From assembly GCA_973895155.1 (NCBI GenBank), contig OZ316894.1:22043867-22107866 (forward strand): 64,000 nucleotides of DNA, read 5' to 3'. Shown here piece after piece: positions 1 to 39,852 of this stretch (the first letter of the stretch is position 1; each line of letters begins with the position of its first letter). Source of the DNA: Marsupella aquatica. Lineage: Eukaryota; Plantae; Marchantiophyta. The position numbers were made by a program, and so were the translations under genes. The notes under the pieces were generated by a model, which worked only from the letters and a program-made list of their open reading frames with translations, did no database searches and was not told where the DNA came from.

Positions 1-88
1 AAATACAAATGAGTGTTAAGTTATAGACACCAAATCACATATGTCGAAGCAGGAATATAACAACTTTGAAAGAAAAGAACACTTTTGT

Positions 89-122
89 GCGCATGCTTTG
101 AGCGTCCACTCGGTCTGCGATA
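89..122 (+). promoter_or_regulatory. Bipartite motif GCGCATGCTTTGAGC-N5-CTCGGTCTGCGATA upstream of kinase
   Basis: Its 15-bp and 14-bp blocks are identical to the reverse complement of 9498-9530, upstream of the transposase. Confidence 0.6.
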
Positions 123-349
123 TTTCACAAGTGTTGTCTTTCTCTTTTATTGTTGTTATATAGAAAGGTAATTAAAATCATGTGTGCAATAAAAATACAT
201 AATGCATGGGAGAAATAAACCGGGAAAAGATAATAACAATACGACTTGTAATTTTCAGGTTGGTCGTTGAATCCTTATTGGAAGGATTTTATTTAAATCC
301 CGGTAAGATCTTGTTCCTCCCTCACATATTCCTTTTGTGAAGGGAAAAC

Positions 350-2005
350 ATGGTCATCGAAAATTTTAGTTTAGAGTATAGGCAAGTGTTGGAGATGATC
401 ACAAAACATGTGAATGAGGGATATGAGCCGAATCTTGTTGCTCTGGATGCATTGAAGAACGCTCGAAACACTCTCGAACATGCTAGGAATTCTAGCAAAG
501 TGGCCGGGAAACGAAAACGGAAGGGGGCAAACGAAGAGGCAAAACAAGTTCGACACAATGTGGTAGTGTCGATATGGAAAGAGATACTTTATCGCTACAC
601 TCAACCGAAACAGTATGGGGTGGACGGGTTCGAGAGGGAGTTCACAAGACACGGAGAGAAAGGATACAAGAACTTTCTTGGTGAGATAACCCGTTGTATG
701 CGGGAAAGTGTACAAAAGGAGGACAATTTCACACGAGAGCAAATGAAGTCATTTGAAGATGAAACTGAGAAACCGGGAGGATTTCTGGAAAATTTGGCAC
801 TCAACTTGGAGAAGCATGTTTGGGATAATTTGGCAGCCAAAGTGGAAGAGGGTGACACTACATTGCTTGGAAACCCCGGGATGTACACACACAAGAGAGA
901 ATTGCTAGTGAAGTGGAGTAAGGAGTTGGCAATGGCAAAATCTGATAGCAATGTCAAATATGCTAACGAGATTGTGCACTTTGGGGATGTCAGCATCAAA
1001 AGTGCTCGAAAAGGAACACGTCCATCGCGTGTAGTTCCAGAGGTTAGGAGTATCCATTTTCTTAAACCTGAGCAGGTGCACAACACACGTCGCATTGGGA
1101 AAGGAATCCAAGGAGAGGTATACACTTGTCGTATATTACATTGTCCTCTCATTCCCGTCAACGTGACCTTAGTCGCAAAGCGGTTCAAGGATGGAGACAA
1201 GCATAAGAGACGAACTGACGCATTACAAGAAGTGCTTATGGGAGGACTGAATCATAAGGGAATCGTTGGAGCTCTTGCGTTGACTATTGAGGATCCGCCA
1301 AAACTTATTTACGATCACTATAATGGAGGTGACTTGGGTAGCTTTATTGATAAGTGCGGCATATCGTCAAAGAGCAAGGGGAAGGCACAGATCACGACGG
1401 ACCTTGATTTCAAGTTTATTTCGGAGAAGAAACTCTTGTTGGAGAACCGGTTGGGAATCGCCTTGGCTTTGCTGGAGACACTGCAATACTTGCATGAGCA
1501 TGATCGATTTCATTGTGATCTTCACTTTGGAAACATCCTTCTTCATTTCGATCACGAGCACGATGTGGCTATTAAGGTGTATGTTGGTTTATGTGATTTT
1601 GGCTTGTCTAAGCATAAATCACAGTGCAAATTACCAGCTAATCGGATGTGGCCCACAGCAACAGAAAAAGCAGCAACATACCAAAAACAATTTCCACAGT
1701 TGGCTCCGGAGCTTGTTCAACCTACCCCTGTCGAGTTTAGTGAAAGTACCGATATATATGCTTTGGGGAATATTTTTGAGACATTGTTGACAGAGAATTG
1801 GGATGGAATGTCTAAGGGTTCACGGTTTTTGGGGAGGGGTTGGAGTGCACAAGTGCATGGCCCCAAATTGGATATCATAATCCGTGAAATGATGGCCACG
1901 GATGCCAAGAAAAGAATGGATTGTGCTTTTTGGAGTTTGAAGATAGTTCGAACGTTTCCAGATTGCACATTGCATTTGCACAACAGTCCATATCTTAGAG
2001 ATTAG
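350..2005 (+). CDS. Protein kinase (TKL-like fold) with ~240-aa N-terminal extension, single ORF
   Basis: 551-aa ORF with Gly loop IGKGIQGEVY, VAKR lysine, HCDLHFGNILL catalytic loop, DFG, APE and DIYALG. Confidence 0.88.
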   Translation: MVIENFSLEYRQVLEMITKHVNEGYEPNLVALDALKNARNTLEHARNSSKVAGKRKRKGANEEAKQVRHNVVVSIWKEILYRYTQPKQYGVDGFEREFTRHGEKGYKNFLGEITRCMRESVQKEDNFTREQMKSFEDETEKPGGFLENLALNLEKHVWDNLAAKVEEGDTTLLGNPGMYTHKRELLVKWSKELAMAKSDSNVKYANEIVHFGDVSIKSARKGTRPSRVVPEVRSIHFLKPEQVHNTRRIGKGIQGEVYTCRILHCPLIPVNVTLVAKRFKDGDKHKRRTDALQEVLMGGLNHKGIVGALALTIEDPPKLIYDHYNGGDLGSFIDKCGISSKSKGKAQITTDLDFKFISEKKLLLENRLGIALALLETLQYLHEHDRFHCDLHFGNILLHFDHEHDVAIKVYVGLCDFGLSKHKSQCKLPANRMWPTATEKAATYQKQFPQLAPELVQPTPVEFSESTDIYALGNIFETLLTENWDGMSKGSRFLGRGWSAQVHGPKLDIIIREMMATDAKKRMDCAFWSLKIVRTFPDCTLHLHNSPYLRD

Positions 2006-2192
2006 AGATTAGGGTTTACACAATTTTGTAAAGGTCACCTTAACGATTATATGTTTATTCATTGTATGTCAATTACAATGTTCTGCATTTTGTTGATAAT
2101 ATTCTATCAAACTTTGTCGTGAATGCCCAAAATTGTGCTAAATGTGTTTGTACATTGTCAAATATCGCAGACCTTTTGTACACATCGCAAAC

Positions 2193-2933
2193 ATGGGACG
2201 ATGGGAATTGTCTTCTGATGATGAAGACAAAGAGTTCACGATACAACATCTTACCATGCAAGATGGTCAAGGATCCTATTGTGACGATGAAGCTCTTCGT
2301 AATAATGTGTTGGATAATCTTACAACCATTGGCATTCACTATGAGGCTAAACCCAAGGTTGATGGAACACCGGCGCCAAACACAAGAAGATGGGAAGATG
2401 AGGGTATGAAGGATGAATGGAGTATATTAACGCCCAATGTAAATCCTCCCCATGACGAATGGGCCATGAATGCAAAGGAATTGGAGATGTTGATGCCAAA
2501 GAAAGACTTTTGGCCATTAGCACAACAAGTTTTTCACGATCCGGATCTTTGGGCAACAAGATCATGGGCGCAAGAAAAATTCACCATGTCCAAAGTAACA
2601 CATGCAGGTGTTAAATCACATTGGCAGCAACGATATCGAGAGTTTGCTCCACACAAAGCCCAAACGAAAATGAGTTCCGTTTACCCTCCTTTTATCCGAT
2701 GTCTGATTGCTGAATTCATTCTCAAGTGGAAGGTGGATTACCGTTGGGAAAACAGTGCTGGCAAGCTGACTCATCAGGTGCATCCATCAGTGGTTGCGAT
2801 TGCAACGAATAGGAATACAACTATTGCAAAGGACCCTTCAATGGAGACTTCCAACAAGGGATCCAAAAGAAAGCTAGATGACACTGGGGAGGGATATGCG
2901 CATGAGAAGGGGAAAGCGGCTGTACTTCCTTGA
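2193..2933 (+). CDS. Unknown protein; probably the N-terminal half of the RING protein, separated by one in-frame TGA
   Basis: First ATG at 2193; same reading frame as 2940-4139 (CCT TGA GTC TCC ATG). Confidence 0.55.
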   Translation: MGRWELSSDDEDKEFTIQHLTMQDGQGSYCDDEALRNNVLDNLTTIGIHYEAKPKVDGTPAPNTRRWEDEGMKDEWSILTPNVNPPHDEWAMNAKELEMLMPKKDFWPLAQQVFHDPDLWATRSWAQEKFTMSKVTHAGVKSHWQQRYREFAPHKAQTKMSSVYPPFIRCLIAEFILKWKVDYRWENSAGKLTHQVHPSVVAIATNRNTTIAKDPSMETSNKGSKRKLDDTGEGYAHEKGKAAVLP

Positions 2934-2939
2934 GTCTCC

Positions 2940-4139
2940 ATGCCTGACCGTGCAGCACCACCAACCAATGTGGAGTCAACGCACACCAAAAAACCAATCC
3001 TTGTAGGTGTTGGGAGTAGAACTCCACATGCAAAGAACAACAATGTTACTGATGCTAACAAGGATAAGTTCAACCTGCACAACATATGCAAGAGCTTGGG
3101 GGCAGATGTTGCAGAGGTGATTGAGACAAATCTCCGCACGAAGTATGTAGTGGAGCTATGTGAATGTGGCAGCATCGAAAAGTTCAAGTCACAATTGCAA
3201 CAAGCTGATATAAAGATGAGATCACTTGAGAAGAAGCAGAACGAGCCGACGACCAATTCGGAAGTGATGTTGTACAAGTGTCAATTGTTTGACAAGATGG
3301 AAGAAATCAATAAGCTGACAAAACAACTTGCTGAAAAAGAGCGTCAATGCAATGAACTGGCACGACTTGAGGAGAAGGACAAGATCATTAATGATCTTAA
3401 AAGTGAACTTGCAACGCAAGCAATCATCATATCAAATCTTCACGAAGAGGTGCAAGAATTTAACAATGGTGCTTTGGGGATGAGGTCAAACAAAGGGCAA
3501 GGTGAATTATTGCCGCCAAATTTTGTTAACATGCAAATGATAGATCCTACAGGGCACAACAACCTTTTTCCAGATGTGGAGGTTGACGCGGAAGGTATTG
3601 ATAGGTTTTTTGATAAGTGGAAAAAGGATGAAACTATGGTAGCATTTGTTCGTGAAAAGGATGACAAGTGTACTTGGTGCCTATATCCTTGGGGCCCTGA
3701 ATCTGTTTCCATGTTGGGAACCTGCGGTCATATATGGCATCATGCTTGCTTGTCTAAATGGTTGAAGAAAAGCCGAAAATGTTGGTGTCGCACACCATTT
3801 CATGAACGCGAGTATGAGCAACGAGGATTGTTGAAGCAAATGCCATCAATGGAGACTCAACAAAACACTGAAGATATGACTGAAGATACTATACCGGCGA
3901 TGCAAATAGATGAAACTCCCATTGAACATTTCACAATCAATGAATATAATTTGTCAGATGGGGAATTTGACAGGTTGTTATTCAGTGGTCGACTCGATGA
4001 GTGGAAACAATATGCGGCAGCCAACCAGCCATCAATAGATGAGCAAAATTTGCAACGATCCATTCGGCGCCATCGACGACGTCAACAACAGGCAGAGGTG
4101 AAAACAGAAGCTGTTGACAATAACAACAAAAGGAACTAA
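2940..4139 (+). CDS. Coiled-coil + RING-H2-like zinc finger protein (putative E3 ligase)
   Basis: Heptad-rich segment (MEEINKLTKQLAEKERQCNELARLEEK) and CTWC-x14-CGHIWHHAC-x10-CWC, a C3H2C3 arrangement with a shortened last pair. Confidence 0.75.
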   Translation: MPDRAAPPTNVESTHTKKPILVGVGSRTPHAKNNNVTDANKDKFNLHNICKSLGADVAEVIETNLRTKYVVELCECGSIEKFKSQLQQADIKMRSLEKKQNEPTTNSEVMLYKCQLFDKMEEINKLTKQLAEKERQCNELARLEEKDKIINDLKSELATQAIIISNLHEEVQEFNNGALGMRSNKGQGELLPPNFVNMQMIDPTGHNNLFPDVEVDAEGIDRFFDKWKKDETMVAFVREKDDKCTWCLYPWGPESVSMLGTCGHIWHHACLSKWLKKSRKCWCRTPFHEREYEQRGLLKQMPSMETQQNTEDMTEDTIPAMQIDETPIEHFTINEYNLSDGEFDRLLFSGRLDEWKQYAAANQPSIDEQNLQRSIRRHRRRQQQAEVKTEAVDNNNKRN

Positions 4140-4644
4140 AACCAATAGTCTCTACATTTTGATGTTATTTTCATGTAGTTACTATTAGAGACATTTTGTT
4201 AAAATAGAAGCGGCATATCCTCTTTGACAATTATTTTCAACTTGTAATTGGTAAAGAGATTTTGGAGTGACATTACATTGCATATCTCGATGAGTACATA
4301 TATTTTTCATTGGGGGCATGGCGTCGCCTTTTGGAGAATGTGTATTTTTGTAAGAATATTCCATCCTCCAATCAGCCATAGGTTTTGGAAGCATATTGTC
4401 GGGCTCACAATCATATTTTTGGACAAGTATGAGGAAAATAGACGTGATGAGAGACGGTAGCACAGTGGACTCAGGTACTGATCCTTCTCTGAAATCATTT
4501 CCAAAAGGAGATCGTGTAGCACAATGAGTTCAACAAAGTCAACATCGCAATGGTTTTAGCCGCCCAAGTTGAGAATGATTTTGTAGAAGGATGTATACCT
4601 AAGTCCACTCACTTTTCCTGTCTTTCATAATTTTTTCCGCTATT

Positions 4645-5965
4645 GCTGCTACGGCCAATGACATTCATGCACATGCAAACCGAGGCCAACGCCTACTCCT
4701 TTGCCCACCGCAAAAATGGGCCCTCATTACAACTTGAAGTTGAACGGAGTTTATTTGAGTACGAGAGAAGTTCTGAAAGCAAATGCACTCTCAGGTCAAA
4801 TTTTCAGGTCCTTCGAGCAAAAAATTACTGAGTATGTCATCGATCCGTTGGTTTCACAACTTCTCTCGTACTCAAATAAACTCTGTTCAACTTCAAGTAG
4901 CGTAGCTGCTACGACCAATGACATTCATGCGCATGCAAACCGAGGCCAACGCCTCTACATTTGCCTACCCCAAAAATGGGCCCTGATTAGAACTTGAAGT
5001 TGAACAGAGTTTTTTTCATTATGAGAAGGTTTATTCAAGCAATGGCACTCTCAGGTCAATATTTCAGGTCCTCCTGACTTTGTTATTATTGAATATGTTC
5101 GTGCTCCGTTGCTTGAATAAATCTTCTGATAATGAAATGAACTGACCAATTACTGGAGTACGGCTACTACGGCCTATGACATTAATTCGCACAATTGCAT
5201 GTTTATATCCTCTCCTTTCCGAATTCCAATTCGAGCTTGGACATCCTCTCGTCAGCTGGTCTCCACCATTGCAGTTGCTCTTCACGCAAACCAAGATAGC
5301 AGTCTCTAGAATCCTCGAACCTATTTTATTTCAATGCATCATTCATAGTGTTTGAGGAATCCAGAGGTTCGCGTGAGGAGCAACTGAAAGGGTGGAGACC
5401 TGCTGACGAGAGGGTGTCCAAGCTCGAATTGGAATTCGGACAGGAGAGGATATAAACGGGTGAACTTTGACTTGAAATTGGTGATTGTATTTTGCGTCTG
5501 CATATCAATTTGGTGACCGATCTTGCGGAATCCCCGTGACCGTGTCTGATCATCATCATGACATTGCTCTCCTTGGCCACCAATGGGCCCTCATTACAAC
5601 TTCAAGTTGAACGGGGTTTATATGATTATGAGAAGGTTACTGATTATGTAGGCGATGTGTTCATTTCACAACTTCTCTCATAGTCATATAAACTCTGCCC
5701 AACTTCAAGTAGTGCAGCTGCTACGGTCAACGACATTCACCCACCCCAAAAATGGGCCCTCATTACAACTTCAAGTTCAACTAAGTTTATTTTATTACGA
5801 GAAGGTTTATTCAAGCAATGACATTCTCAGGTCCAATAATGAGGTCCTCTCGACCTCATTATTATTGAATATGACGGTGCTCTATTGCTGGACTAAATCT
5901 TCGCATAGTGAAATGAACTAACCAATTAATGGAGGGGGCTAGTATGGACTACGGCTGCTATGGCC
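4645..5965 (+). ncRNA. Cluster of five long stem-loops (candidate polycistronic pre-miRNA/hairpin-RNA locus) built from duplicated units
   Basis: Inverted repeats at 4732-4898, 5014-5137, 5201-5457, 5599-5710 and 5786-5918; leader motif GCTGCTACGGCCAATGACATT-like near 4645, 4906, 5163, 5717 and 5954; many mismatches are G-U on the + strand. Transcription is not shown. Confidence 0.55.
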
Positions 5966-6227
5966 AACAACAAGGTACTTTGAAATAGTCAGTGTTGGAG
6001 ATTTGGAAAACATGTTGCGTTGGTGTGTCTCTATGGCATTCTCAAATGCAAATACAAATAAATTATTCAATCATTGTACAATAATAAACACACTGCAAGA
6101 CAATACAATCATGTTACAAAAAATATAATTGTTTATAATTTTGTCTATGTCAGATACGACAATATAAGAGTAGCAACACTTGATATTATCCTAATGAAAA
6201 GATGCTTCAAGGCTGTGAAGAGAAATT

Positions 6228-9112
6228 TCATGCATTGTTGTTAAGATTTTTGCACAAAAGCGCATTCCACTCGTCTTGTTTGTCGCCCCAACTGAGTGGA
6301 TCACGATTGTGTGACTGAACATTGTGCGATGTTTCTTGAAATGATGATATTCCTCGAAACCCACCAAGGCCAATAGGCCTGTTCGACGTATATGGATTCA
6401 TGACACTTGGCCCTGCATACGCATTCAAGGGTGGACCTGCATGGTGTTGCCAGTTTGCATGTGGGTCGTTTGAAGTTTGACCTTCATGATTGTTGTATCC
6501 ATGAAAAAAGGTTGATGTCCTTCCATTCGTCGGATGCCCTGCTGTGCCTGTGCGTTGCTCGTTGAAATATGGTCTGCTTGTGTCAACATCATTCGCAAAG
6601 TTCGACCAAGGTGACCTTGGTTGGGAAGGCATCACAAAGTTTCTATCCAGTGATGCATCTTCCTCGTCTTGGATTTGCGATTCATCAATTGTAGGATACA
6701 TCTCCAAATCCATTTCATTCTCCCATTCCTCTGCAGCAGTGATGTCTGTATCTGGTGGAATACGAGTCAAGAACTCACTATCCTTATCCAGTGAAAATCC
6801 GTGTAGCAATTCATCAGCATCATCAATTGTATCATAATCTTCGACATCTTCTTCACCAAGAGCCGCACGTGTTGCATCGTACTCTTCATTGCTGCACAAC
6901 TCCATGGAGATAGGTCTAGGTCCATCATTTGTTCTTCTTCTTTGGTCATAACGTTCATATATAAACGTATGCGGGTTTCGAACATTTGTGAGCCCTTTCT
7001 CTACCCTCATGTTTGTAAATACAAACACCAAATCTTTTGCTCGATCATTTGTCAATCGATTGCGACTTTTGGAATGTATAAATCCATACGAACTCCAGTT
7101 TCGCTCGCAAGCTGATGCGCACACTTTTTGGTGTAAGATTCTTCGCGCCAGGATTCTCAAATGTTTATAATCTGCACCATACGCATGCCACCACTCTGCT
7201 GGACTGACATTACCTATACTTGATTGGGCGGCTCCCATCGCTATTGATGTGTTGGGATTTTTTTTTGGGCGTCAATGGCTTGACTGTGGATGGCAGAAAT
7301 AAGTTCTCTGACGTCGCGATCATGGTTGATCCCCTCCTTCACCTGTTGTTCTGAATATCTAGCAATGTATTCACTGAAACCCCTGTAGAGTTCTGGATCT
7401 CCAGCGACATCTATGTCCTCATCAAAAAACATTTGGGGATTGAGATATGCTGCCGCTAGCATGAAATCAGTGGTAAGAGATTTTTTTCGATCCAAATACA
7501 CTTTTAGTATCTTCGGTTTCAATACCTCTGTTACCAATGGACAATCCTCCATGCTTGCTTTAAAAACATCAATCCCTCTTTTCAAACTCCAATACAACCA
7601 ACCTGATTGCGGAGAATCACCATCAAATTCTCGCAACATCTTGACCAACGGAGTAAAGAATTTAACTGTATCCTTCACTTCAACCCAAAATGTATCTTGC
7701 TGTATCCACATTTTAAGTTCGTCTGCCTTTCCCCTCGTCATGTGTCCAGCTGATTTTGGTCGCAATGGAAGTCTATCACGATAAGACTGCCAATTATCAT
7801 CAATGACCATCTGTTGTAAAGCTCCTCTTAGCTCCAACGCTCTTTGTGCCATTAGAAAATTGGTCGCAAATCTAGTTGCATTTGGATTCAACAGTTTTTT
7901 GTCAGGAGATTTTCTTGCAAATATTGCAGAAAGCTTTTGCGATGATGAAACTGCTTTTACTATCCACCTCAACCGTTTAAAAATCTTTTGGAATGGATTC
8001 TGTCCAACATCATCTACCACTACACGCTTGTGACCACACATATCCTCTAGCAGCAAATTAAACACGTGGGCAGCACACCAGCTCCAAGTGACATGAGGAT
8101 ACTTTTTCATGACTACCTCACAACCTGCTACGCGATTTGCGGGTGCTCCATCAGTTACAATTTGAATAATATGATCTGCACCAATATCCTCAATGTATTT
8201 CAACCACATGTCGCCAAGATATTTCCCATCTTTCTTGTCAGCTTGCGCAGCATTCCAACTATCCAAGAAGAAGTCACCTTTAGAAGTCAACAACATGACA
8301 TTCATCAAAGGTTCTCTTCGGACGTTTTCCCATCCATCTGAAGAAAGAGAATACCCATAAGGTTTTGCCTCCTTTAAAGTTTGCGTCATGTCCTTTGTGA
8401 GATCCTCCTTACTGTCTTCCAATAATTTCAATCGCAAACTTCGCATCGTAGGTAGAGAATAATCATTGACAATCCCTTTTGAAGTCTCTATGACTGCTTC
8501 TCGAAAAAAAGGATTATTTGAAACATTGAATGGAATACCACTGGTGTAGAAAGCTTTCACCCAAAGCTTATCCAAATTTGTTCTATTTGGAATTTGATAG
8601 GCATCCATAATTGGGTTAGGAAGATTTACTGGCCTATCTCCTTCCCTTACATGTGTATCATCCATGTCAACATAGTTTGACCCTCGTGTGGATGCTTGCG
8701 AATATGAACTTCCAACGCTTGGCCTACGACCTCTCACATCCCGCAAGATATGACTTCCATCTCGTCGTTTGTACTTTAAGGTCGGTGGAACCTTTATCAC
8801 ATTGTACATAATGTTGATGGCATCCAAATTGACGACACCATAGAGTTGCATGCAAGGGGGCGCATCCCCTTTTTGGATGTTTCCCATCAAATGCGCCTTT
8901 GCTCGTGTTGCATGATGAGTAACGTATGTTAAACAATACTTGCATCTTCGATAGATACGATTGACATCATGACATGTTGAAGGCGCATCACATCGTTCAA
9001 AATATCTCCACACTGGAGATTGTTTTGAAGGGTGTTCTTGCACACGAGTTGGACCAGGCCTGGGAGTAGTGGAATGATATCCAGTTTCATGCGAATCCTC
9101 TTCATCGGACAT
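6228..9112 (-). CDS. hAT transposase (BED zinc finger, DUF659-type DDE core, hAT dimerisation domain, acidic C-terminal tail), frameshifted at an A9 run
   Basis: BED finger (VWRYF...CKYC...HL), SDGW, IVTDG, CAAHVFNL and TRFAT lie in ORF 7241-9187. SPAEWW...LARRIL...SACERNWS...RNRL lies in ORF 6228-7238. One extra A at 7258-7266 joins them into ~961 aa. Likely ATG at 9112. Confidence 0.92.
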
Positions 9113-9205
9113 TGTTACGACTCTCAATGGTAAAAAAATAAAAGGGTTGATTCTTTTGATTTTGTGAATATAACAAATATAGTACAATGGGTTACTTTCC
9201 TGAAT

Positions 9206-9530
9206 TATCGCAGACTGGGCCTAAGCTCAAAGCATGCGCAGGAAAGTTTCCCAAATTCTTATATTTGTCAACATCCCTACTTCAACCTATGTTATGTAAT
9301 ATCTATAACTTCACAATAGTTTATCTTTGAAGTGAACATATGTACGAGAAATCGTGATACCCATATGAAATGTCATAGACCGAGCCAAAGCTCTAAGCAT
9401 ATGCACATGGGTATCTCTTTACTCGCAAGTAGTTCACTTTCAAACAAAACAATGATGCAAAGTTGTTAAGGCGATATAAGGAACTTCTCGTACGAATTAT
9501 CGCAGACCGAGCCGAGCTCAAAGCATGCGC
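9206..9530 (-). promoter_or_regulatory. Three copies of the bipartite GCGCATGCTTTGAGC...GTCTGCGATA motif upstream of the transposase
   Basis: Copies at 9206-9240, 9373-9405 (degenerate) and 9498-9530. Confidence 0.6.
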
Positions 9531-9759
9531 GTACAAGAGTTCCAATGTATCCCTCCGATCTCTCCCTAATGCTAAACCACAAGAGAGAGAAACACAATGA
9601 GACTTTGGATTAGTGAAATGAATTAGTTATTCCTACTTATACTAAATCATCTACTTCTTATCCTCTCTTAAAACTCTTAATCTTTGATCCTAACCCTAAT
9701 TGCGCCTCCCTTAACCCTAATCTCGCGCCCCTAACCCTAATCCCGCCTCTAACTCTTCC

Positions 9760-10300
9760 CCGGCCACCAATTCCCGAGCCCCGTCCCCGAACCCCGCACC
9801 CCGTTCCCCGAACCCCGTTCCCCGCATCCCCGAACCCCCTACCCGAACCCCCTTCCCCGAACCCCCTACCTCGTTCCCCGAACCCCGTTCCCCGAACCCC
9901 GTTCCCCAAATCCCCGAATCCCGGCCCCCCTTTCCCGCCCCCCCTTCCCCGGTTCCCCGAATCCTCTTCCCCGAATGCCCCCCGTCCCCGGTTCCCCGAA
10001 TCCCGTCCCCCGGGCCACCTTTACCCCGGCCGGCCCCGGAAGGGTCCGGGCAGGGTTCGGGTGGGGGTCCGGGGAGGGTTCGGGTGGGGGTCCGGGGAGG
10101 GTCTGGGAAAGGCCCGAGAGTCCGGGGAGTGTTCGGGGGAGGGTCCGGCGAGGTTCCGGGAAAGGCCCGGGAGGGTCCGGGGAGGGTCCGGGAAGGGCCC
10201 GGGAGTCCGGGTTCGGGTCAGGGGGAGTTCGGGTTCAGGTCCGGGGTGCTCGGGAGGTGTTCGCGAAAGGTCCGGGGAAGTCGGGGTTCGTTCGGGAGAA
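9760..10300. repeat. GC-rich subterminal repeat block (CCCCGAACCCCGTT-type units, then G-rich GGGTCCGGG/GTTCGGG units)
   Basis: C-rich half 9760-10030 and G-rich half 10030-10300; short motifs in both orientations, as in hAT subterminal transposase-binding arrays. Confidence 0.8.
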
Positions 10301-12516
10301 TCTTCAGGAATATACGTCAAATTGCGTGTTTTCGGGCCGTCATTTGACGATTTGACGTGCCCGACAAGGCGTCAAGGTGCCCGTCAGATTAAACCGGGAT
10401 TCCATCATTCAATAGAAGTACAAATACATTTATCTGTCACTAATACACTACACAAGATGTTTTATAGACAAGATCTAGCAACAAAGATCTAGTGCAAAGA
10501 GTACTTAATCATCACTTATCTTCAGAAAGTTCACTGCTTAATCACACATCAAAATGTGATAAGATACGGTGTGCACTCACTAACTTAAAGAAAATTAGTA
10601 CCTTTATCCTGGTATGGAGCTATGTAGTACACAGTATGCGCCATATTTTAATGTATAGTATTTTGGGGATATGTCATATCAGGCCCATCGTTTCACATAT
10701 CCCCGGAATCACATAGAGTACAAGGAATCACTTATCCATTTTGGAAACGATGGGCCTGTACGAGGGTGTAAGGTACGAGTTTAGGGTTTAGGAATCACAT
10801 AGAGTACGAGTACTACAGTATTTGACCTGACATCAGAATCACGCATTCCCCAAAGAACTCTGTTGCCTCTGAAACTGTCACATGTCAAATGTTGCCTTGA
10901 AACTATCACATGTCAATGGAGAAGTGCATGTTCAAATTGGAGAAGTGGACATTTCAGTTCTTTGAAAATGCACTTCTGTTAGGTCACATGTCAAATCAAC
11001 TTGGAGAAGTGGACACATTTCACTTCTTTAAAACTGCACTTCTATCATAATCTGAAGTTTTGGGGGTAAGTGTGCAATAATTTGGGGTCTCAAACTTCAA
11101 AATTTGGTGAACCCTAATTACTAAATTAAGGTTAGGGGACAATAAAAGCTATGGAATACCAGATTCATGATCTATAACTATTTCCCATATCCCATGAGTC
11201 AATGTAGAGGCTAGTGAAACCCTGCCAAAATGGTTGTTTGTTTTCATGTGAAAACCAGTCTGTAACTATGAAGCTTTGAGACCGACCCACTTGTAGGGCA
11301 TCTCAATCTTTGTGGGGTGGGGCGGTGGAACTTTGAGAGGGCTTGTAGCAAGTCCGCCTGCCGTGTGCAAAAAAGCCCCGGCAAAACTGTGTGGTCGGCA
11401 ACTCGGCGTACCACACATTTGAAGTCTGTAGCAAGTCAGCCTGCGGTGTGCCAAAAAATCCCAGGGCAAAAATTTGTGGTCAGCAACTTGGCGTACCAAA
11501 CATTTTAAGTCTGCTTCCCCACTCCAAAGTACCAAACATTTTAAGTCTGCTTCCCTACTCCAAAGCCTGGGAAAATGCCGACCTCAAAAGTTTGAGACCC
11601 CCTAATGTAAACGCTCCAAAGTACCAAACATTGGAAGTGTGCTTCCCTACTCCAACGTCTGGAAAAATGCCGATCTAAAAATAGTTTGAGACGCCCTAAT
11701 AATGTAAACGCTAGCACATTCCCGGAACTGCAGAATCGAAAGTTCGTGCCCTTAGGCTGTGGACAGTAAGGCCATCATCCTCGCCTGCCACGGCAATCCG
11801 CGCACCATAGTGACAGGAAGTCAATAGTCGAGTTAAATTATCGATTCCCATCCCCGTATCATTCTGAATGGTGAAGCAGACTGGTCATTCTGATTGGTTG
11901 GGATCGATACCTATGGACTGGCTAGCTTGTCGACCAAAACGCCATTCCCCACCTTCCGGGGACCTTCTGTAGCTAGGAGTGGTAAGAAAGTATCGACAGT
12001 CACATCCACTCCAAGACGTGTCACTCATTTGTCAGGAGTCTGTAACTTTTCAACTACTCAGACGATTTTTTTGCGTCTCATATTATTATATAAAGCGCCA
12101 AATAAAGGAATCATGATTGCCGTCGAGCAACATCAATGTTTACGCCGGGCTGCAGAGTGCTTGAATAGTCTTGTCACACAAGCAATCTGGGTATGTAATG
12201 ATCGTCGATCTCCACACCGTGAGGAGGCGGAAGGCTGTATGTGAATCTCGACGCACATAGTATTAAGCCTGGGATTTCTTCGTACGTAATTGATGTTCGG
12301 GAACAATCGATGAAGAGGAGACGATTCAAGATGACTCGTCAGGGTACTTGAGCTCGAAATATCGAGTGAGCAACTCTAAGTCTTGGTGAATTTTGTTTTT
12401 TTGCCTTGAAAGCCTTGGTGAATTCAATTCTCCAAGCTTAGGGCTTGCACTCAGGAGGAGCTGAAGAGGTGTACTCGGTTTGCCAGCACAGTCGTCGGTG
12501 GTGTGTTGCCTGAGGT

Positions 12517-15257
12517 ATGGAGCCGACAAGGAAAAGAAAGGGTCAATTGCTGATCAGTAATACAAAGATAAATGCCGGCAAGGAAACGGAAGATGTACCA
12601 GAAAAGAAAAATGGCCTGCCCATCACCGACCCGAATTGGGAGTGGTCCACTTATGATCAATATGTAGACAAGGAAGGGAGGGTGAAGTTGGAGAAACGGG
12701 AAGCAAAAGAAACCGAGGAGACCGAGACCGGTCCCTTCCGAGTTATCTACCGCAACCAAGCGAGTCTGCAATGGCCAGATGTGGTTCAAATCACTTTGTA
12801 TTCGAGACCCCTCTGCAGAATCATTGGGCAGTACCTCCCCAGAAATGGAGATCTGAAGACTCTGGCAGAACCGAATATCGAGGGCCGAGAGCTATGTGTG
12901 GTGCTGGATGCTCTGAAGAATCACAAATTCGACGAAAAGGGATCTGGGAAACCTGAATATGAAGGACTGGCTGATGGAAATGGTGCACCCGAGCATCAAG
13001 AGCTTGCGAATAGTAATGCTGCACTTGAGAGCCATGTCCTGACTAACGGAGATGCAACTGGTGCACTTGATGAAAGCACTCAAGACGACTGCAGCAAGGT
13101 TGGAAGTGAAGTCGAAGAAGGGGAACTTCATCTGAAACACTTACTGCGGTTCATGGAGAAGGAATACAGAGATGTACAAGTCCGAGTCCAACGCCTGCTA
13201 GCAGAACAACACGTTGCATGGGATATGCTCTGGGCATTCCTACCCTGTGGCAAGAAAGTCGTCTACAGTTGTGACCATTCTGAAGAGCTGCTGTACGCCG
13301 TCGTGTTTACGAATTCTTTCCAGCTGACCGTGAACGGATGGTTCTTCATCGTCGAGCTCGATATCTGGGAGTTTGACGGGCGAAATTACAAGAAGTGTCC
13401 CATTACAAGACGAATCCCTAAATATGAGGGTGAGCGCCCGTTTGCCAGCTTGCTGGTCTGCCCGGTCGAGCTACTTGGAACGCCTGAGCTCTTGGAGGAG
13501 AAATTCTTGGACACTGGCAAGAAATATTTCGATCTCGCCATAAAATCCAAGCACCGGTTTATGCACTACAATGGACCATTGTTTCAGAAAAGACTGAGCA
13601 GCGGGTGCTGGCTCCTACACAAGGAGAACGCCGACGGAAGGGTTATGATTGATCTGGCGAGCTTTGCAAAGATGAAACCTGACTATCCTATGGGGAATGC
13701 GCAGCCGCCAACAGCATCGAGAAGCTCTATAGTTCGTCACAGGAATGGTTCATATTTCTACAGCACAATTCCTGACGAATCTTTCAGTGGCTCTTATTCT
13801 TCGGCAAGATTGGAATCAGTGTCCGACGAGACTCTCATCTTCGCTCCCGGCATTGTTTACGGCTTCTCGTTCACCTTGAAGATGTGGGGCTCTTTCGCAA
13901 TCACTGGCTTTCGGGATATCTCGTTCGACTCATCTGCCTTCAACCAGCTTGTGATGGAACCTCAAATGAAAGACTTGGTGCATAACTTGGTGAGCCACTA
14001 CATTGCAACACCAGCGGATGGGTTGGTGCCCCTTCAGCGAGTAGACCCCATCTCCAACAAAGGCAGTGGATGTGTCTTTCTCTGCTACGGCCCACCTGGG
14101 ACAGGTCAGTTTTTGGACTATAGGAAGTATTTTCAAAACACAAATAGCAACTTGATTCTTCCCTCTACCTCATATTTATTAAATTGAATGATTTCATTTC
14201 CGTTCAGCATTTCACGATGATGATTTCCCTACAGAAAGTGATGAACCGTGACCACTAAGGTAACAACAGATTCAATTTTTAAATCAAAAGTTTTCGTGAC
14301 TTGAGAGGGTGACTGAGTGGAACGACCTGTTCCCAATAAGTGGAATTTAGAGCAACTATGTCACATTCATTTGCACCCATTTTGGCTGATAGATACCACT
14401 CTTTCCCTATTGACTAGCCAGTTGACTACAGTAGCCGCATCTTTTATCTAGCTTTAATACTAGCTCGGTGTCCATTGGGCTCTTTCCTTCTTTTTTCCCT
14501 ATGGCCCGCGCCATGGTATGTCACATTCATCCGTAATGTGGTATCACCCAGCCAAAATGGGTTTGGATGAGTAATACCACACGTCGTACTGACCACATTT
14601 TTTAATTACCATTGCTAACAACGGTGCACTTGCGGACCGTTTGTTGCAGGAAAGACTTTGACAGCGGAGTCCATAGCCGAGACTTTGGGTCGTCCACTGT
14701 GGGCTCTTAGTGTGAGTGAGCTTGGAACAACGCCCAACGAGCTCGAGCAGACGCTGTTCAAGGTTCTGGACATCGCAGCAGCCTGGCGGGCCGTGCTGCT
14801 GCTCGATGAAGCTGATGTCTATCTTGAGAGGCGCGTCTCAGGAGCAGACCTCACTCGAAACGCGATGACCGGTGTCTTCCTGCGCATGCTGGAGTACTAC
14901 CGCGGAGTGTTGTTCCTCACAACGAACCGCATTGGCACATTTGACGAAGCGTTCCGTTCCCGAATCTCCATGTTTGTGCACTACCCAAGCCTTAGTATTC
15001 AACACAAGGAGCAAATCTGGAAGGCTCTTCTCGGAAAGGCCCAACTAAAAGATGTGGTGGGCTCTGAGAAGCTATCGGAGTTGGCGGCTCTGGACTTGAA
15101 TGGCCGTGAGATCAGAAACGCCATTCACACAGCGCAAAGCTGGTCACAGAGCAAGGGAGAGGCCCTGCAGTTTGGGCATGTGGAATATGTAATCAACGTG
15201 CTGGTAGCCTCTCTCAAATCGCTCAATGAGGCAGTCCATGCACGAGCATATAATTAG
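12517..15257 (+). CDS. Fungal-type AAA+ ATPase (DUF7025-like N-terminal region + AAA domain), 2 exons 12517-14104 and 14650-15257, ~731 aa
   Basis: Splicing GT(14105)..AG(14649) rebuilds Walker A CYGPPGTG|KTLTAE. Also Walker B VLLLDEADVYLERR, FLRMLEYYRGVLFLTTNR, FDEAFRSRI and LNGREIRN, plus N-terminal WDMLWAFL, GRVMID and VYGFSFTLKMW motifs typical of the filamentous-fungal family. Confidence 0.9.
14367..14570. repeat. Small inverted-repeat (MITE-like) remnant in the ATPase intron
   Basis: 14367-14399 and 14538-14570 are imperfect ~33-bp inverted repeats sharing ACCCATTTTGGCTG and GATACCAC; no TSD identified. Confidence 0.4.
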
Positions 15258-15891
15258 CTACCTCTGCAATTAGCTGTCCCAATTAAGTGTCGGACCCGCT
15301 TGAAGGAACCTTTTGCCTAAGCACTAGCAGGTCTTGAGAAATTGTGCTGCTTCACCTACTAATAATTTAGAAACAGTGTCCTGGCGGTTTAGTTACCTGT
15401 CTTTAGACTACTTGCCAAGTGTCCACCGCCCACTCCATTTAGTGCACTCCGTCCTCCAATCTTCTTCTTACAACAAGATCTCTGACTAGAAGATTGAAGT
15501 AACACTAGAAGAAAACAGGGCCCTTTATGACCAATCACCCAATGACGGAGATGAATAAATGACCAAAATTTTTTATGACACAAAAAGAATGACAGGGGAA
15601 TGACTGTCCACAATGACCAATGGACTGAAATGACAAAATGTTAACTTTTGCGTCATTTTGTATAATGTCTGTAATGATTGATGTGACCAAAATGACCCAA
15701 TTTCCCTAAATGGTCAATTTAGACACATGTCTCAAATAACGCAATTAATAACAACAATGATAAATCAATGTTTAACAACATTATAGTCACTCTGGACAAT
15801 GATTGAAATGACCAAAAATCTATTTGAGTCATTTTGGACAACGGTGATAAATGACAAAAAATGTATTACCGTCATTTTAACCAACGGTGTT

Positions 15892-16330
15892 AAATGACAA
15901 AATATAGGGTCAATCTGAAAATGAGAATATATCAATGTTTACAACAACATATTGTCATTATGGACTTCTCCCATAAATGACTAACTCTAGGGTCAATCTT
16001 GAAATTAGGACATATCAGTGTTTACAAGAACATACCGTCATTATGGACTTCTCTCATAAATGACTAACTCTAGGGTCAATCTTGAAATTAGGACATATCA
16101 GTGTTTACAAGAACATACCGTCATTATGGACTTCTCTCATAAATGACTAACTCTAGAGTCAAACTTGAAATTATGATATATCGGTGTTTACAATAATATA
16201 CTGTCATTATGGACTTGTTGCATAAATGACTAAATATAGGGTCAATCTAAAAATCATGATATATCAATATTTACAATAACATATAGTCATTATGGACTTA
16301 TTGCATAAATGACTACTTATAGAGTCATTA
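15892..16330. repeat. 83-bp tandem repeat (~5 copies) in the CACTA left subterminal region
   Basis: AAATGAC recurs at 15892, 15975, 16058, 16141, 16224 and 16307; each unit has an inverted GTCATT...AAATGAC pair. Confidence 0.9.
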
Positions 16331-16409
16331 AAGAACCCAAGAGATATGAAGATTAAAATACTCAATAGTCATTCCAGACACCGGTCATAATTGTAGAGTC
16401 ATTGATATA

Positions 16410-19400
16410 GTTGATAACCCTTCCACTAAGTGCGGGACACAATACTCATCATTGTCCTCCCACTGGTTGGGGCATTAGCAATTTGAACACATGTCTTGCA
16501 TTTACTTTAGGCATGATGCACCTAGCTTTGGGGAAATCACTCCCAAGTCATACACCTTTGGAGTGATTTTCCATAAGTGTCACCATATATAGATGCGCGC
16601 ATACTACCGTATCCAAAGGCAAATGAAACCTTTTTGTCTCTCCAAGAAGTAGGGCAATACCAATGGAAGGTTGTCATCCTTTGTTGTAATTGTGTCATGT
16701 TTGTGCCGGTGTTTGGATGGGGAATATTTTAATTTGCAAATAAATAGTGATGGGGCATTCAAGGAGCTTGTGTAATCTTTATTGGGTCATTTCTAAAAAC
16801 ATTTGCATTACAAATACCAATGACTACAAGTAGGGTCATTAAATTTGTCATATGGACGGTCATATAAGTCAAGTGACTGGACTTGTGGTTATTTGTGTGG
16901 TCCCTCATGCAATCATTAAACACAAGCACAAATGACCAGTTTGGGGCTGGGGGCTTGAGGTGGGCCCTAGAGTGCCATGGGGCCCCACATAGAGGTGAGA
17001 ACCCCTCCACTAGGTGCGGGACACTATACTCATCATTGTCCAACCACTAGTTGCGACATAAACACTTTGGACACATGTTTTTGCGCTTACTTCAGGCATG
17101 ATGCACCTTTGGGGAAATCACTCCCAAGTCGTATGACTTCGGAGTGATTTGCCAAAAGTGTCACCATGTATGCATACCATCACATCCAAAGGCAAATAAA
17201 AGTTGTTTTTTGGTTCTCCAAGAGGTAGTGCTACACCAATGGAATGGGCAGGGGAGTCGTGTTTCTCAGTATGGTGTGGGTGCGGGATTAGGGTATAGGA
17301 ATATTCCAATCTTGCAAGGAATCTAAAGCTGGCTCTAGTTGGAGGTACTAGGGCCTTTATTGGGTCATATGTGAGCAATGGTCCGTCATAAATGCCAATG
17401 ACTAAAAGTAGGGTCATTAAAACTGTCATATGGAGAGTCATATCAGTCTAATGATTGGATTTGTGGTCATTTGAGGGGTCCCTCATGTAGTCATTAAGGA
17501 AAAGCACAAATGACCAGTTTGGGGCTAGGGGCTTGAGGTGGGCCCTAGAGTGCCATGGGGCCCCACATAGAGGTGAACCCCTCCACTAGGTGCGGGACAC
17601 TATACTCATCATTGTCCAACCACTAGTTGTGACATAAACACTTTGGACACGTGTTTTTGCGTTTACTTGAGGCATGATGCACCTTTGGGGAAATCACTCC
17701 CAAGTCGTGCCAAAAGTTCAACCATGGATGTATACCATCACATCCAAAGGCAAATAAAACATATTTTTGGTTCTCCAAGAGGTAGTGCTGCACCAATGGA
17801 ATGGGCAGGGGAGTCCTGCTTCTCTGCATGGTGTGGGTGTGGGATTAGGGTATAGGAATATTCCAACCTTGCAAGGAATCTAAAGCTGGCTCTCTTTGGA
17901 GGTACTAGGGCCTTTATTGGGTCATATGTGAGCAATGGCCCGTCATAAATGCCAATGACTAAAAGTAGGGTCATTAAAAATGTCATATGGAGAGTCATAT
18001 CAGTCAAATGACTGGATATGTGGTCATTTTAGGGGTCCCTCATGCAGTCATTAAGGAAAAGCACAAATGACCAGTTTGGGGCTAGGGGCTTGAGGTGGGC
18101 CCTAGAGTGCCATGGGGCCCCACATAGAGGTGAGAACCCCTCCACTGGGTGCGGGACACTATATTCATCATTGTCCAACCACTAGTTGCGACATAAACAC
18201 TTTGGACACATGTTTTTGCATTTACTTGAGGCATGATGCACCTTTGGGGAAATTACTCCCAAGTCGTACGACTTTGGAGTGATTTGCCAAAAGTGCAACC
18301 ATGGATGTATACCATCACATCCAAAGGCAAATAAAACCTATTTTTTGGTTCTCCAAGAGGTAGTGTTGCACCAATGGAATGGGCAGGGGAGTGGTGCTTC
18401 TCCGCATGGTGTGGGTGCGGGATTAGGGTATAGGAATATTCCAACCTTGCAAGGAATCTAAAGCTGGCTCTCTTTGGAGGTACTAGGGCCTTGATTGGGT
18501 CATATGTGAGCAATTGCCCGTCATAAATGCCAATTACTACAACAAAGGTCATTAAAATGGTCACATTGGATGTCATATAAGCGGAATGACCTGAATTATT
18601 GTCATTTAAGGGGTCCCTCATGCAGTCATTAAGGAAAAGCACAAATGACCATTTTGGGGCTAGGGGTTGGAGGTGGGCCCTAGAGTGCCATGGGGCCCCA
18701 CATAGAGGTGAGAACCCCTCCACTAGGTGCGGGACACTATACTCATCATTGTCCAACCACTAGTTGCGACATAAACACTTTGGACACATGTTTTTGTGTT
18801 TACTTAAGGCATGATGCACCTTTGGGGTTTAGGGTTGTTTTGTGGTTCTCCAAGAGGTGGTGCTGCACCAATGGAATGGGCAGGGGAGTCGTGCTTCCCT
18901 GTATCGTGTGGGTGCGGGTTTAGGAAAGAGGAATATTCCAACCTTGCAAGGAATCTATTGGGGGCTCTCTTTGGAGGTACTAGGCCCGGTACTAGGGCCT
19001 TCATTGGGTCATTTGTGAACAATGACATGATGTCATAAATACCAATGATTACAAATAGGGTTGACCATTGAAACCGTCATATGGAATGTCATATAAGTCA
19101 AATGACGGGATTTGTTGTTATTTGAGGGGGTCCTTTGTGGAGTCATTGAAGACAAACATAAATGACCAGTTTGAGGCTAGGTGCTGGAGGTGGGCCCTAG
19201 AGTGCCATGTGGCCCCACATGGGGCTGGAAACCCCTCTACTAGGTGCGGGATATTATATTTACTATTCTTCAACCATTAGTTGCACCATAATTAATGTTG
19301 AATCATATTTTTGCATTTACCTAAGGCATGATGAAACTTTGAGGAAATCACTCCCAAGTCATACGGCTTTGGAGTGATTTGCCAAAAGTCTCACCATGTG

Positions 19401-21000
19401 AAATAATAGTTGTTTTCTTGTTCTCCAAGAGGTAGGGCAAAACTAGGGGAAGGTTGTTGTCCTTCTATTTAACTGTGTCATATCTATGCCAGTGTTTGGG
19501 TGGGGAATATTCTATTCCATTGCAAAGGAAATGCGAGGGGGCACTCCAACAGGTAGTGTAATCTTCACTAGGTCATATTCGAGTAATGGTGTTCATTAAA
19601 GCCAATGACAATAGTAAGGGTCATTTTGGCAGTCATATTGCAGGTCATTTGGACCAAATGACTGCATATGTGGTCATTATAGAGGTCCCTCATAGTGTCA
19701 TTATGGACCAACATAAATGACCAGTTTGGTGCTAAGGATTGGAAGTGGGCCCTAGACTGCCATGGGGCCTTGCATGAAGGTGGCAACCTCTCCACTAGGT
19801 GCGGGACACTATAATCATCATTGTCCAACCACTAGTTGTGCCATGAACACTTTGGAGCCATCTTTTTGCGTTTACTTAAAGCATGATAGAACCTTGGGGA
19901 AATCACTCCCAAGTCATACAGATTTGGAGTGATTTGCCAAAAGTGTCACCGTGGTTGAATACCATCATTATCAATGGCAAATTGAGCCTTTTGTTTTGTC
20001 TCTCCAAGAAGTAAAGCAATGTCACCAATCAATGGAAGGTTGTTGTCCTTCTATGTAAGTGTGTGATTTTTGTGTTGATGTTTTGATGGGGATACTCCAT
20101 TTTGCATATGAATAGTGTCGGGGCATTGTGAGTAGGTGTTGTAATCTTCATTGGGTTATTTTGGAGTAATGTTGTGTCATTAGTGCCAATGACTACACTA
20201 AGGGTCATTTTGGGAGTCATTTTGGATGTCATTTGTACAAAATGACTGCATATGAGGTCATTAGACAGGTCCCTCATGATGTCATTATGTACCAGTAGAA
20301 ATGACCCTTTTAGGTCTAGGAACTTTGGGTGGGCCCCAATGTGCCATGAGGCCCGCCATGGGGCCCTACATGAAGGTGGTAACCCCTCCACTAGGTGCGG
20401 GACACTATACTCATCATTGTCCAACCACTAGTTGTTAGTTACATGAACATTTTGGACACATGTTTTCATGTTTACTTAAGGCATGATGCAACCTTGGGGA
20501 AATCATTCCCAAGTCGTACAACTTTGAGGTGATTTGCCAAAAGTGTCACCAAGGATTAATACCATCATTTGCAAAGGTAAATCAAGCCATTTGTTTTCTC
20601 TCTCCAAGAGGTAGCGCAACACCAATGGAAGGTTGTGGTCCTTCTATTTAACTATGTCATGTTTGTGATGGTGTTTGGATGGGGGATATGATATTTTGGG
20701 GATATTTTGCAAATAAATTGTGACGGGGCACTCTAGGAGGTAGTGTAATCTTTATTAGGTCATTTTGGAACAAAGTTGTGTCATAAATGCCAATGACTAC
20801 AAATAGGGTCATTGAAACGGTCATATAGGATGTCATATAGGTCAAATGACCAGACTTGTGGTCATTACATTGGTCCCTTGTGGAGTCATAAATGTGGTAC
20901 TACATAGAGCTGGGAACCTGCCTCCGGGTGCAGTACACTCTACTGTATACTATTCTCCATCCATTAGTTGTGGCATAAACCTGCACTTTGGGATATGGGG
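16410..21000. repeat. ~520-600-bp tandem array (~8 copies) inside the CACTA element
   Basis: Anchor CCACTAGGTGCGGGACAC at 16423, 17007, 17583, 18142, 18720, 19237, 19792 and 20388, degenerate near 20920; central copies are the most similar. Confidence 0.92.
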
Positions 21001-30230: not shown

Positions 30231-30402
30231 ACAGCATATCGTGGAAAAGCTTTTAACAACTCCTTTCCAATTAAACCAGGTCTGATTGCTAGCGAGCTCC
30301 AGGCATGATCCGAAAATACCCATGGGACAGCTTTGCTCTCTTTTCAATATTGATTTCTGCATGCCAGCCAAAGCCTTTCTCTAGCCACATTTCATTCAAG
30401 TG
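30231..30402. repeat. ~170-bp dispersed repeat, inverted copy at 39685-39852
   Basis: Shared blocks such as CCAGGTCTGATTGCTAGCG and GGGACAGCTTTGCTCTCTTTTCAATATTGATTTCTGCATG appear as reverse complements at 39.7-39.85 kb. Confidence 0.8.
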
Positions 30403-33400: not shown

Positions 33401-33438
33401 TCGTGAGAATCACACAGGCGACGAAATTTGTGGTAAAA

Positions 33439-33843
33439 ATGTCGATGACATCTGCCGCTGCCAGTCATGTGCCCGGTCATGGGATGGAACCGGAGACCAC
33501 GACTTATCAACGGGTGCCTTACAACTTCCCTGCCGTTGGCGTCTGGCTCCCCACAACAGAAAATGCTCACGCCTCAGGTAAAGAAGAAGGCAAGAAGGAG
33601 ATGCAAAGAGCTGCGGACAGAAAAGCTAAGGCATCATTCTTCGAAAGAGTGGCTGTGAAGGTGACTTCCGCATCTAGAAAGAGGAGAACGAAGGTGTCTC
33701 CACAGTCTAGCTCTACGACTGAGAGTAGTACTACCAAGAACAGCGCCGACGTCCAACTCACTGCACTCGAGAAGCAATACCTCGACTATCTGAGGAGATC
33801 CGTGGGGACGGGACAGTTCTCGCATTATCTGATGCCTGCCTAA
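33439..33843 (+). CDS. Small unknown protein (~134 aa), single exon
   Basis: ATG at 33439; GC content and codon use like host genes; basic/Ser-rich middle and a QYLDYLRR C-terminal motif; no family recognised. Confidence 0.5.
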   Translation: MSMTSAAASHVPGHGMEPETTTYQRVPYNFPAVGVWLPTTENAHASGKEEGKKEMQRAADRKAKASFFERVAVKVTSASRKRRTKVSPQSSSTTESSTTKNSADVQLTALEKQYLDYLRRSVGTGQFSHYLMPA

Positions 33844-38679: not shown

Positions 38680-39684
38680 CCTGGCAAACCACAAGTAAGT
38701 TGCTCTATCACACAATATTTTCTTGCGATCTCTAGCAATGAAGTCTGTGCTCCTCCAAGTAATTAGCCATACTTACTAGTCTATCCTCTTCAGTCTTTAG
38801 TTGAGGTTAAACTACTCCACTTAACCTAACCAGACTCTAGAGTTATGTTCAATAAGCATTCACATCAACATAAATGTGGGATTGGTCCAAACTTTCCTAA
38901 ATGCTCTGAGTACTTGTAAGGCCAACTGTTTCTATTGATTATACAATCCAGATTAGTCTTAGAAGGAATTCCCTCTAATCTTAGAGATGTTCAGTCTAAT
39001 GCTTTGTGTTAGAGTGTTCGATCTCCCTAAATTAAAGAATAACCTTTAGATTCTGGCTTATGGGGTCTCTAGCAAAAGTGGGAAACTGGCTAATCCATAT
39101 AACTAATTGCTAACAGAAGCCACAGTTGGGGTCTAGACTTCTAGACTGACTCCTAGCTGTAGACCATAACTCTAAATAAAGACAAAATCAATAGACAAAA
39201 CTGAAAGTCAAGTGCTTACTTACCAAAGAGAGGAATGGGGACAAAACTGAAAGTGAAGTGCTTACTTACCAAAGAGATGGATGGGGAAAAGATGAAGCAG
39301 AAACAACATAGATTCTTTTGCAAGGTTTTTTGGTATTATCTCTAGTTATGTTCAAGTAACGGGTAAGCAGGCTAGTGGAACAAAAAAAAACTAGCCTAAT
39401 TTTAGCTAAAAGCGACTTTTGAGAGAGATAGATCTAGCAGCTTTTGGCCACTAAAAAAAGGCTCGTAGGGTTTCTCCTTTTTCTGCATTGCAAGCGGTCA
39501 CGCTATCTTCATACCGGCCTAACTTGTTTAGCAGACACGTGGGAATGCTGTATACCCATAGGATCCTCCCCACTTGAGGCTCAGCCAAAACTCCTGACAT
39601 GCCGTGTGACACCTCAACGGATATTGCTGTCAGACCTTACACTCTTACACACACGCATTGAACTGGGCTTTACATCAAGAGATT

Positions 39685-39852
39685 CACTTGAATGAAATGT
39701 GGGTAGAGGAAGGCTTTGCCTGACATGCAGAAATCAATATTGAAAAGAGAGCAAAGCTGTCCCATGGCTATCTTCGGATCATGCCTGGAGCACGCTAGCA
39801 ATCAGACCTGGTTTGGAAAGAAGTGGTGAAAAACTTTTCCATGATATGCTGT
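39685..39852. repeat. Inverted partner of 30231-30402
   Basis: Direct reverse-complement comparison. Confidence 0.8.

Follow-up and report, generated by a model that had tools for sequence, protein, structure and literature searches.

A six-hairpin fold-back array within a multi-copy hAT transposon of the liverwort Marsupella aquatica

The carrier element and its copies

The window analysed, 64 kb (64,000 nucleotides) of contig OZ316894.1 from Marsupella aquatica, opens inside a DNA transposon that carries a protein kinase open reading frame (ORF), ORF2 and a RING-finger ORF on the plus strand, a fold-back array of six hairpins, designated H0 to H5 and spanning 4464-5921, and a transposase gene on the minus strand (Table 1). 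The DUF659 and Dimer_Tnp_hAT domains of the transposase both score above their curated cut-offs and so identify it as a member of the hAT superfamily. The gene is split in this copy by a one-base frameshift near 7257; a contig from run X1 at full local depth has one more base there and lacks the frameshift. The kinase ORF is covered by near-identical high-depth contigs and has homologues in 8 clusters at 48-73% identity. For ORF2, the Atlas returned only unnamed clusters at 0.91, SWIM/MULE leads falling under 0.9, and these searches gave no VANC-like match. A single in-frame TGA (2931-2933) divides ORF2 from the RING ORF and may be a mutation of this copy, an intron boundary or a site of read-through. 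The element genes are depleted in CG (0.63-0.77) and CHG (0.66-0.75).

Table 1. Positions, in window coordinates, of the genes, hairpins and repeats of the element
Feature	Position	Strand	Remarks
Protein kinase ORF, intronless	350-2005	+	Pfam PK_Tyr_Ser-Thr 1.9e-16, Pkinase 1.3e-15
ORF2	2142-2933	+	without Pfam family
RING-finger ORF with likely coiled coil	2934-4139	+	zf-RING_2 3.1e-6
H0 hairpin	4464-4609	ambiguous	41-bp arms; sixth hairpin, absent from the earlier note
Repeated leader/trailer motif, copy 1	4645-4665	+	further copies at 4905, 5163, 5717
H1 hairpin	4732-4898	+	arms 4732-4782/4848-4898; 51-bp stem; longest perfect run 26 bp
H2 hairpin	5008-5143	+	arms 5008-5045/5106-5143; 38-bp stem
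H3 hairpin	5201-5457	+	arms 5201-5292/5366-5457; ~92-bp stem
H3-H4 spacer	5458-5590		~5469-5584 also in other sequence contexts in run X1
H4 hairpin	5596-5713	+	arms 5596-5633/5676-5713; shortened loop
H5 hairpin	5782-5921	+	arms 5782-5819/5884-5921; perfect 12-bp inner stem 5835-5846/5852-5863
hAT transposase	6228-9112	-	Pfam DUF659 2.1e-30, C-terminal Dimer_Tnp_hAT 4.6e-11
Right sub-terminal region	9200-10400		copies of the 77-127 motif in inverted orientation; short GC-rich repeats behind them

Elements of the hAT superfamily have short terminal inverted repeats and 8-bp target-site duplications; the left end of this element is located before window position 1. The right end probably lies between ~10363 and ~10427, since a high-depth X1 contig stops at 10363 and a low-depth X3 contig begins at 10427. 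One motif is present, in inverted orientation, upstream of both the kinase (77-127) and the transposase (9201-9247 and 9516-9542), and an X1 contig has another copy of the 77-127 motif before position 1. It may serve as a promoter common to the two genes or, by analogy with VANC motifs, be bound by a protein of the element. Telomere-like CCCTAA units lie within 9690-10300, and behind them come GC-rich repeats of 8-14 bases, which change strand near 10030; together these form a large imperfect fold-back near the right end.

In run X1, the contigs that piece together 4-10363 each show 0-3 differences from the window, at depths of 174-243, diverged contigs being at ~16-47. Past 10427, the X3 and X4 contigs have depths of 64 and 57, versus >1000 for exact pieces inside the element. 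With contig depth taken as a rough guide only, and not as copy number, the contrast points to a young family of at least ten near-identical copies. In this high-depth family the array is intact (X1 contigs 4194-5042, 5013-5250 and 5238-6841, with 1-3 differences). The contig covering 4194-5042 starts close behind the RING gene and reaches H2, and that covering 5238-6841 starts within H3 and runs on into the transposase, so that the array is a feature of the family and not of this copy alone. The hAT domains and the near-identical contigs thus establish, as an earlier note on this DNA had proposed, that the array sits within a transposon, and one present in multiple copies. An assembly artefact was rejected, the stretch being covered by contigs from four runs in two studies, one of which runs may be the source of the window itself.

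Elsewhere in the window, neighbouring genes include DUF1995 and a zf-RVT LINE; together with the CG and CHG depletion of the element genes, they mark the host as a land plant. The stretch 10539-10595 is common to many unrelated contigs in four runs, 37-101 of them with a loose end before 10539, and is the end of another repeat family. A gene at 12514-15257 encodes DUF7025 and AAA domains and has a weak 'fungal AAA lid' match, in a plant genome, and a horizontal origin is possible. An 83-base tandem repeat followed by approximately nine 560-600-base units occupies 15780-21000 and is strongly depleted in CG (0.24) and CHG (0.41). At 30273-39814, a LINE-type reverse transcriptase (36765-38762) lies between inverted repeats of 130 bases (95%) that are separated by 9.3 kb; the whole is probably a long-TIR element that harbours a nested LINE.

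Folding and strand preference of the array

The array occupies the interval in which the 3′-ends of the plus-strand kinase and ORF2/RING genes and of the minus-strand transposase face each other. H1 to H5 had been described in the earlier note and are present at their positions (z-scores of -7.5 to -21.6 on the plus strand); H0 raises the count from five to six. Relative to 100 dinucleotide shuffles per hairpin, the plus-strand folding z-scores of H0 to H5 are -4.7, -13.9, -9.3, -21.6, -7.5 and -8.8. The finer details of that description also hold, namely 2 mismatches within the first 47 bp of the H1 stem, a perfect 12-bp inner stem in H5, and G-U pairs at 4 of the 8 mismatches in the H5 outer stem (5786-5918). 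The H3 stem, ~92 bp, is extendable to ~110 bp beyond a 12-nt bulge, opposite which one X1 contig has 12 extra letters, behind 5365.

Plant MIRNA loci are recognized by a fold-back of under ~300 nt that contains a 21-bp duplex region with few mismatches, and by a precise miRNA/miRNA* duplex in replicated small-RNA libraries. The fold-backs here measure 118-257 nt, each leaves 0-2 positions unpaired in its best 21 bp, and all six hairpins conform in size and fold. When GC-corrected energies were calculated for 751 overlapping 170-nt windows of the 64 kb, the three best were all in the array, and no comparable short-loop inverted repeats of at least 35 bp are present elsewhere in the 64 kb. Rfam returned four matches to the array, none near the gathering score. 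The best of these, MIR7533 (85 versus 230 bits), is a generic long-stem match and, with no gathering score reached, the array falls in no known Rfam MIR family.

H1 to H5 fold better on the plus than on the minus strand. The reverse holds for H0 (z of -4.7 on the plus and -5.9 on the minus strand), in which the G-U:A-C ratio of 3:3 gives no strand preference. Folded as a whole on the plus strand, the 1.55-kb array retains all six local stems, at -638 versus -624 kcal/mol for the minus strand, with arm positions paired at 36/38 versus 28/38 in H2 and 37/43 versus 21/43 in H4. Over the outer stems of H1 to H5, the plus-strand ratio of G-U to A-C is 14:4 (P = 0.015), and ~11:4 (P ~0.06, hand count) when pairs inherited between paralogues are counted once. 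The plus strand is thus favoured both by folding and by G-U bias, as the earlier note had argued from its G-U pairs, the excess itself being modest.

A short motif recurs along the array in four copies within 2 mismatches (Table 1), with 0 matches in 100 shuffles. It had been taken to be a leader recurring five times between the hairpins; the copies do recur, the fifth, at 5954, being degenerate with 16/21 matching letters. Since copies follow H0, H1, H2, H4 and H5, with none separating H3 from H4, the motif can also be read as a trailer. Searches of the genome and viral collections returned 0 matches to it.

Descent of the hairpins

H1, H2, H4 and H5 are paralogous across spacer, 5′ arm, loop and 3′ arm; the stems of H0 and H3 are unrelated to this family. 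H5 is a duplicate of H2 (82% over 202 nt), and the 3′ arm of H4 is nearer to the 5′ arm of H1 (29/35) than to that of H2 (22/35). Such homology, which extends past the arms into the spacer and leader in tandem register, is difficult to reconcile with nested MITEs or other small inverted-repeat elements having inserted independently, the alternative that the earlier note had set against its own reading. The inverted arms are long, as they would be in MITEs, H0 is bounded exactly by a 3-base direct repeat, and part of the H3-H4 spacer is found in other contexts. Target-site duplications are, however, lacking at the ends of five of the six hairpins, and there is no excess of depth, the X1 values over H0, H1, H4 and H5 (213-249) being the same as over the element, with two higher bins only where contigs overlap or both arms fit. 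From these comparisons nested MITEs appear largely refuted, and we regard them as a very improbable origin of the array.

Comparison of the paralogues reveals changes on both sides of the stems. Double changes between H1 and H2 are present in 9 of 35 pair columns, with 3.8 expected, and 8 of them keep pairing (P = 1.4e-4); between H1 and H5 there are 8 in 35 columns, 7 still pairing, and between H1 and H4 there are 3 in 37 (P = 0.012). H2 and H5 have no double changes in 36 columns and 6 single changes that break pairs, and the H2-H4 and H4-H5 comparisons (19 columns) are not significant. RNAalifold found two-sided change in 10 of 58 consensus pairs, with a slightly unfavourable covariation term (+1.67). 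The homology and paired changes uphold the earlier proposal that the hairpins were duplicated and diversified, and the structure is retained among the paralogues and, as far as thin data show, in related copies. In three small comparisons, loops weakly appear to change faster than arms: H2 and H5 differ at 11/76 arm and 15/60 loop positions (P = 0.09), one X7 contig differs from the window at 1/86 and 5/65, respectively (P = 0.053), and an X4 contig keeps the arms of H0 with the loop between 4500 and 4566 replaced. The X7 contigs (3 pieces), like those of X5 (2 pieces), are of read length, with depths of 2-8.

Two-sided changes may result from selection on an RNA or from DNA-level conversion between arms, a source that the earlier note had not considered. 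The perfect inner stem of H5, imperfect in H2, and the mixed arms of H4 may point to such copying. The array could then be neutral scar tissue, in which fold-backs arise and are duplicated through template switching in replication or gap repair, conversion keeps their arms alike, and the whole rides in a young family with no RNA role beyond ordinary siRNAs directed onto itself. The uncompensated decay between H2 and H5 fits this explanation, and near-identity within the family makes retention of the array there no test of selection. Conversion is, however, strand-neutral, so that G-U and A-C counts separate the two sources; conversion predicts equal numbers, not the 14:4 observed. Six stems of precursor size, with loops changing faster than arms, and their singularity within the 64 kb also count against neutrality, which we judge possible and distinctly less probable than a precursor role. 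Taken together, the G-U bias, paired changes and arm/loop contrast lend moderate support to selection on a plus-strand RNA.

Shuffling of modules among related copies, also consistent with neutrality, is apparent from joints that connect 5471 to 4569 in X1, and 4668 to 5208, 5270 to 4935, 5638 to 4777 and 5935 to 5256 in X3. In contigs from X2, X6 and X7 (those from X6 do not cover H0, H1, H4 or H5), the letters directly before 5324 resemble the spacer at 4942-4971 (24/30 in X2, by eye). The leader-spacer and the H3 loop plus 3′ arm therefore appear to derive from one segment. The history that we infer has two captured segments copied in inverted form into stems, followed by tandem duplication and shuffling. 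With such an origin the array would be a clear example, even if neutral, of a transposon building precursor-like clusters.

Possible roles of the array

With 734 stem 21-mers taken from both strands, no site with a score of 3 or better was identified in the remainder of the window plus the fetched loci (~70 kb), and the tail of the score distribution equals that of shuffled controls. The arms have no match in the element's own genes, a negative result for self-targeting. Within this ~70-kb sequence space and in protein searches of array readings, no target gene and no match to a silencing gene were found. Searches of Pfam, PDB and protein libraries with array readings, in which short decayed fragments would often be missed, gave no significant match: six-frame readings, with X at stops, produced one Pfam match at E 0.22 among 12 readings and, in 6 PDB searches, two matches of E 1.5 and 1.8, and readings of H3 reached E 0.37 at best in PDB, with an LRR receptor kinase at E 4.6, neither significant. 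That the H3 arms are a captured protein end was considered and rejected, as a 39-aa reading gave one match in 1.84 billion, a chance match to a repetitive CARDB protein; further searches for an H3 protein end had 0 matches, with Atlas leads under 0.9. Third-codon-position bias, as a trace of target tracking, was absent among eight arms (14 versus 11 and 15 extra alleles).

One X1 contig fits the array only at 4844-4898, the 3′ arm of H1, where it adds ~17 to the depth, a contribution like that of other low-depth contigs. Its 30-letter flanks resemble the unit spacer/loop in reverse complement (~20-23/30, by eye), and at least 255 letters beyond, on the side of the second arm, do not fit the array. 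A source or target locus would look like this, and the H1 3′ arm is then a candidate guide strand. The contig could also be a piece of another transposon rather than of a host gene.

The position of the array, exactly between converging 3′-ends, would also suit a device acting in cis, in which Dicer-like cutting or stable structure stops plus-strand read-through before the transposase mRNA, or serves as a silencing decoy, so that the element avoids long double-stranded RNA over its own genes. The failure of the arms to match those genes is in keeping with this, as are two plus-strand AATAAA sequences just behind the array (6057 and 6083), although this common hexamer has 72 copies in the window (56 expected). 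Such a device needs structure; a one-armed homologous locus outside the element is no part of it. The nearest of the kinase relatives fetched (locus L001, 548-2188, 47% identity) also bears on it, in a single case that does not have the converging layout: the next gene, on the same strand, encodes not a hAT transposase but DUF6729, which we take to be transposon-associated, and there is no long hairpin array near this kinase. We consider a cis device improbable. L001 also has short repeats upstream of the kinase. The alignment search with the kinase identified two loci in metagenome contigs and none in viral and genome contigs, the second locus, L002, being too short to reach an array. Kinase cargo and hairpin array can thus, on the one case of L001, seemingly be uncoupled, and such a kinase, if it has moved from one type of transposon to another, might be a counter-defence factor in its own right.

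The explanation that we favour, with roughly even confidence, is that the array is a small-RNA precursor cluster in a hAT transposon, comparable to miR820 but multiplied, that would silence matching sequence elsewhere. In this respect the earlier interpretation as a transposon-encoded polycistronic small-RNA cassette is partly supported. Transcription would be from the plus strand, as G-U bias and folding suggest, probably in a transcript that continues 3′ from the kinase-RING unit, and a Dicer-like enzyme would cut the stems into 21-24-nt RNAs. These would pair with the locus from which the arms originated and direct its cleavage or DNA methylation, to the benefit of the element. In moss, inverted repeats and transposons feed DCL3-type 22-24-nt siRNAs (PMC3565333). 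Products of 24 nt, in particular from the long H3 stem, are therefore as plausible here as miRNAs of the canonical kind. A silencing or defence gene as the target is a guess, and an unlikely one.

Young plant MIRNA and hairpin-siRNA loci arise by inverted duplication, and polycistronic plant MIRNA clusters exist. Long near-perfect stems, source-homologous arms and tandem duplication are shared with the array; those are host loci, whereas the cluster here is inside an apparently autonomous element. The closest parallel is in rice, where pre-miR820 is located inside CACTA elements, derives from and cleaves OsDRM2, and retains homology to it beyond the stem (PMC3459959). As with MIR820, there is a fold-back in a DNA transposon, spread by transposition, and homology beyond the stem to a non-hairpin locus is suggested here by one contig. 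There is one hairpin per CACTA element, in contrast to six in a shuffled tandem array of a hAT element that also carries kinase and RING ORFs, and expression, cleavage and target have been demonstrated for miR820 (PMC3459959), whereas the array is known from sequence alone.

A 2019 review lists three known cases of transposon anti-silencing, all from flowering plants and one of them a hairpin miRNA, namely miR820, the Athila6 small RNA against UBP1b and the VANDAL VANC proteins (PMC6719617). The array resembles the latter two as transposon cargo that may weaken host control; as summarized there, the Athila6 RNA is an siRNA of retrotransposon origin rather than a cluster of hairpins, and VANC is a protein (PMC6719617). 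MITE-derived miRNAs are also transposon-linked hairpins (PMC9641971, PMC10004981), although the stems described here are not element ends and are without target-site duplications. Pack-TYPE elements capture and shuffle segments (PMC6379663, PMC8903248) but, unlike this apparently autonomous element, are non-autonomous. No description of such a six-hairpin element was found in the open-licence literature.

A broader and likewise unlikely proposal is that kinase, RING ligase and recombining hairpins constitute a modular counter-defence kit of an active hAT element, the hairpins being matched to host silencing or immune genes. Their arms would then have been captured from, and be periodically re-matched to, host genes, and sets of hairpins would differ between copies. 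As a small-RNA cassette that is duplicated, shuffled between copies and accompanied by kinase and RING genes, the array would extend the anti-silencing systems of transposons to a virus-like small-RNA cluster, and its copies would form a natural series for asking whether the hairpins carried by a transposon predict its success.
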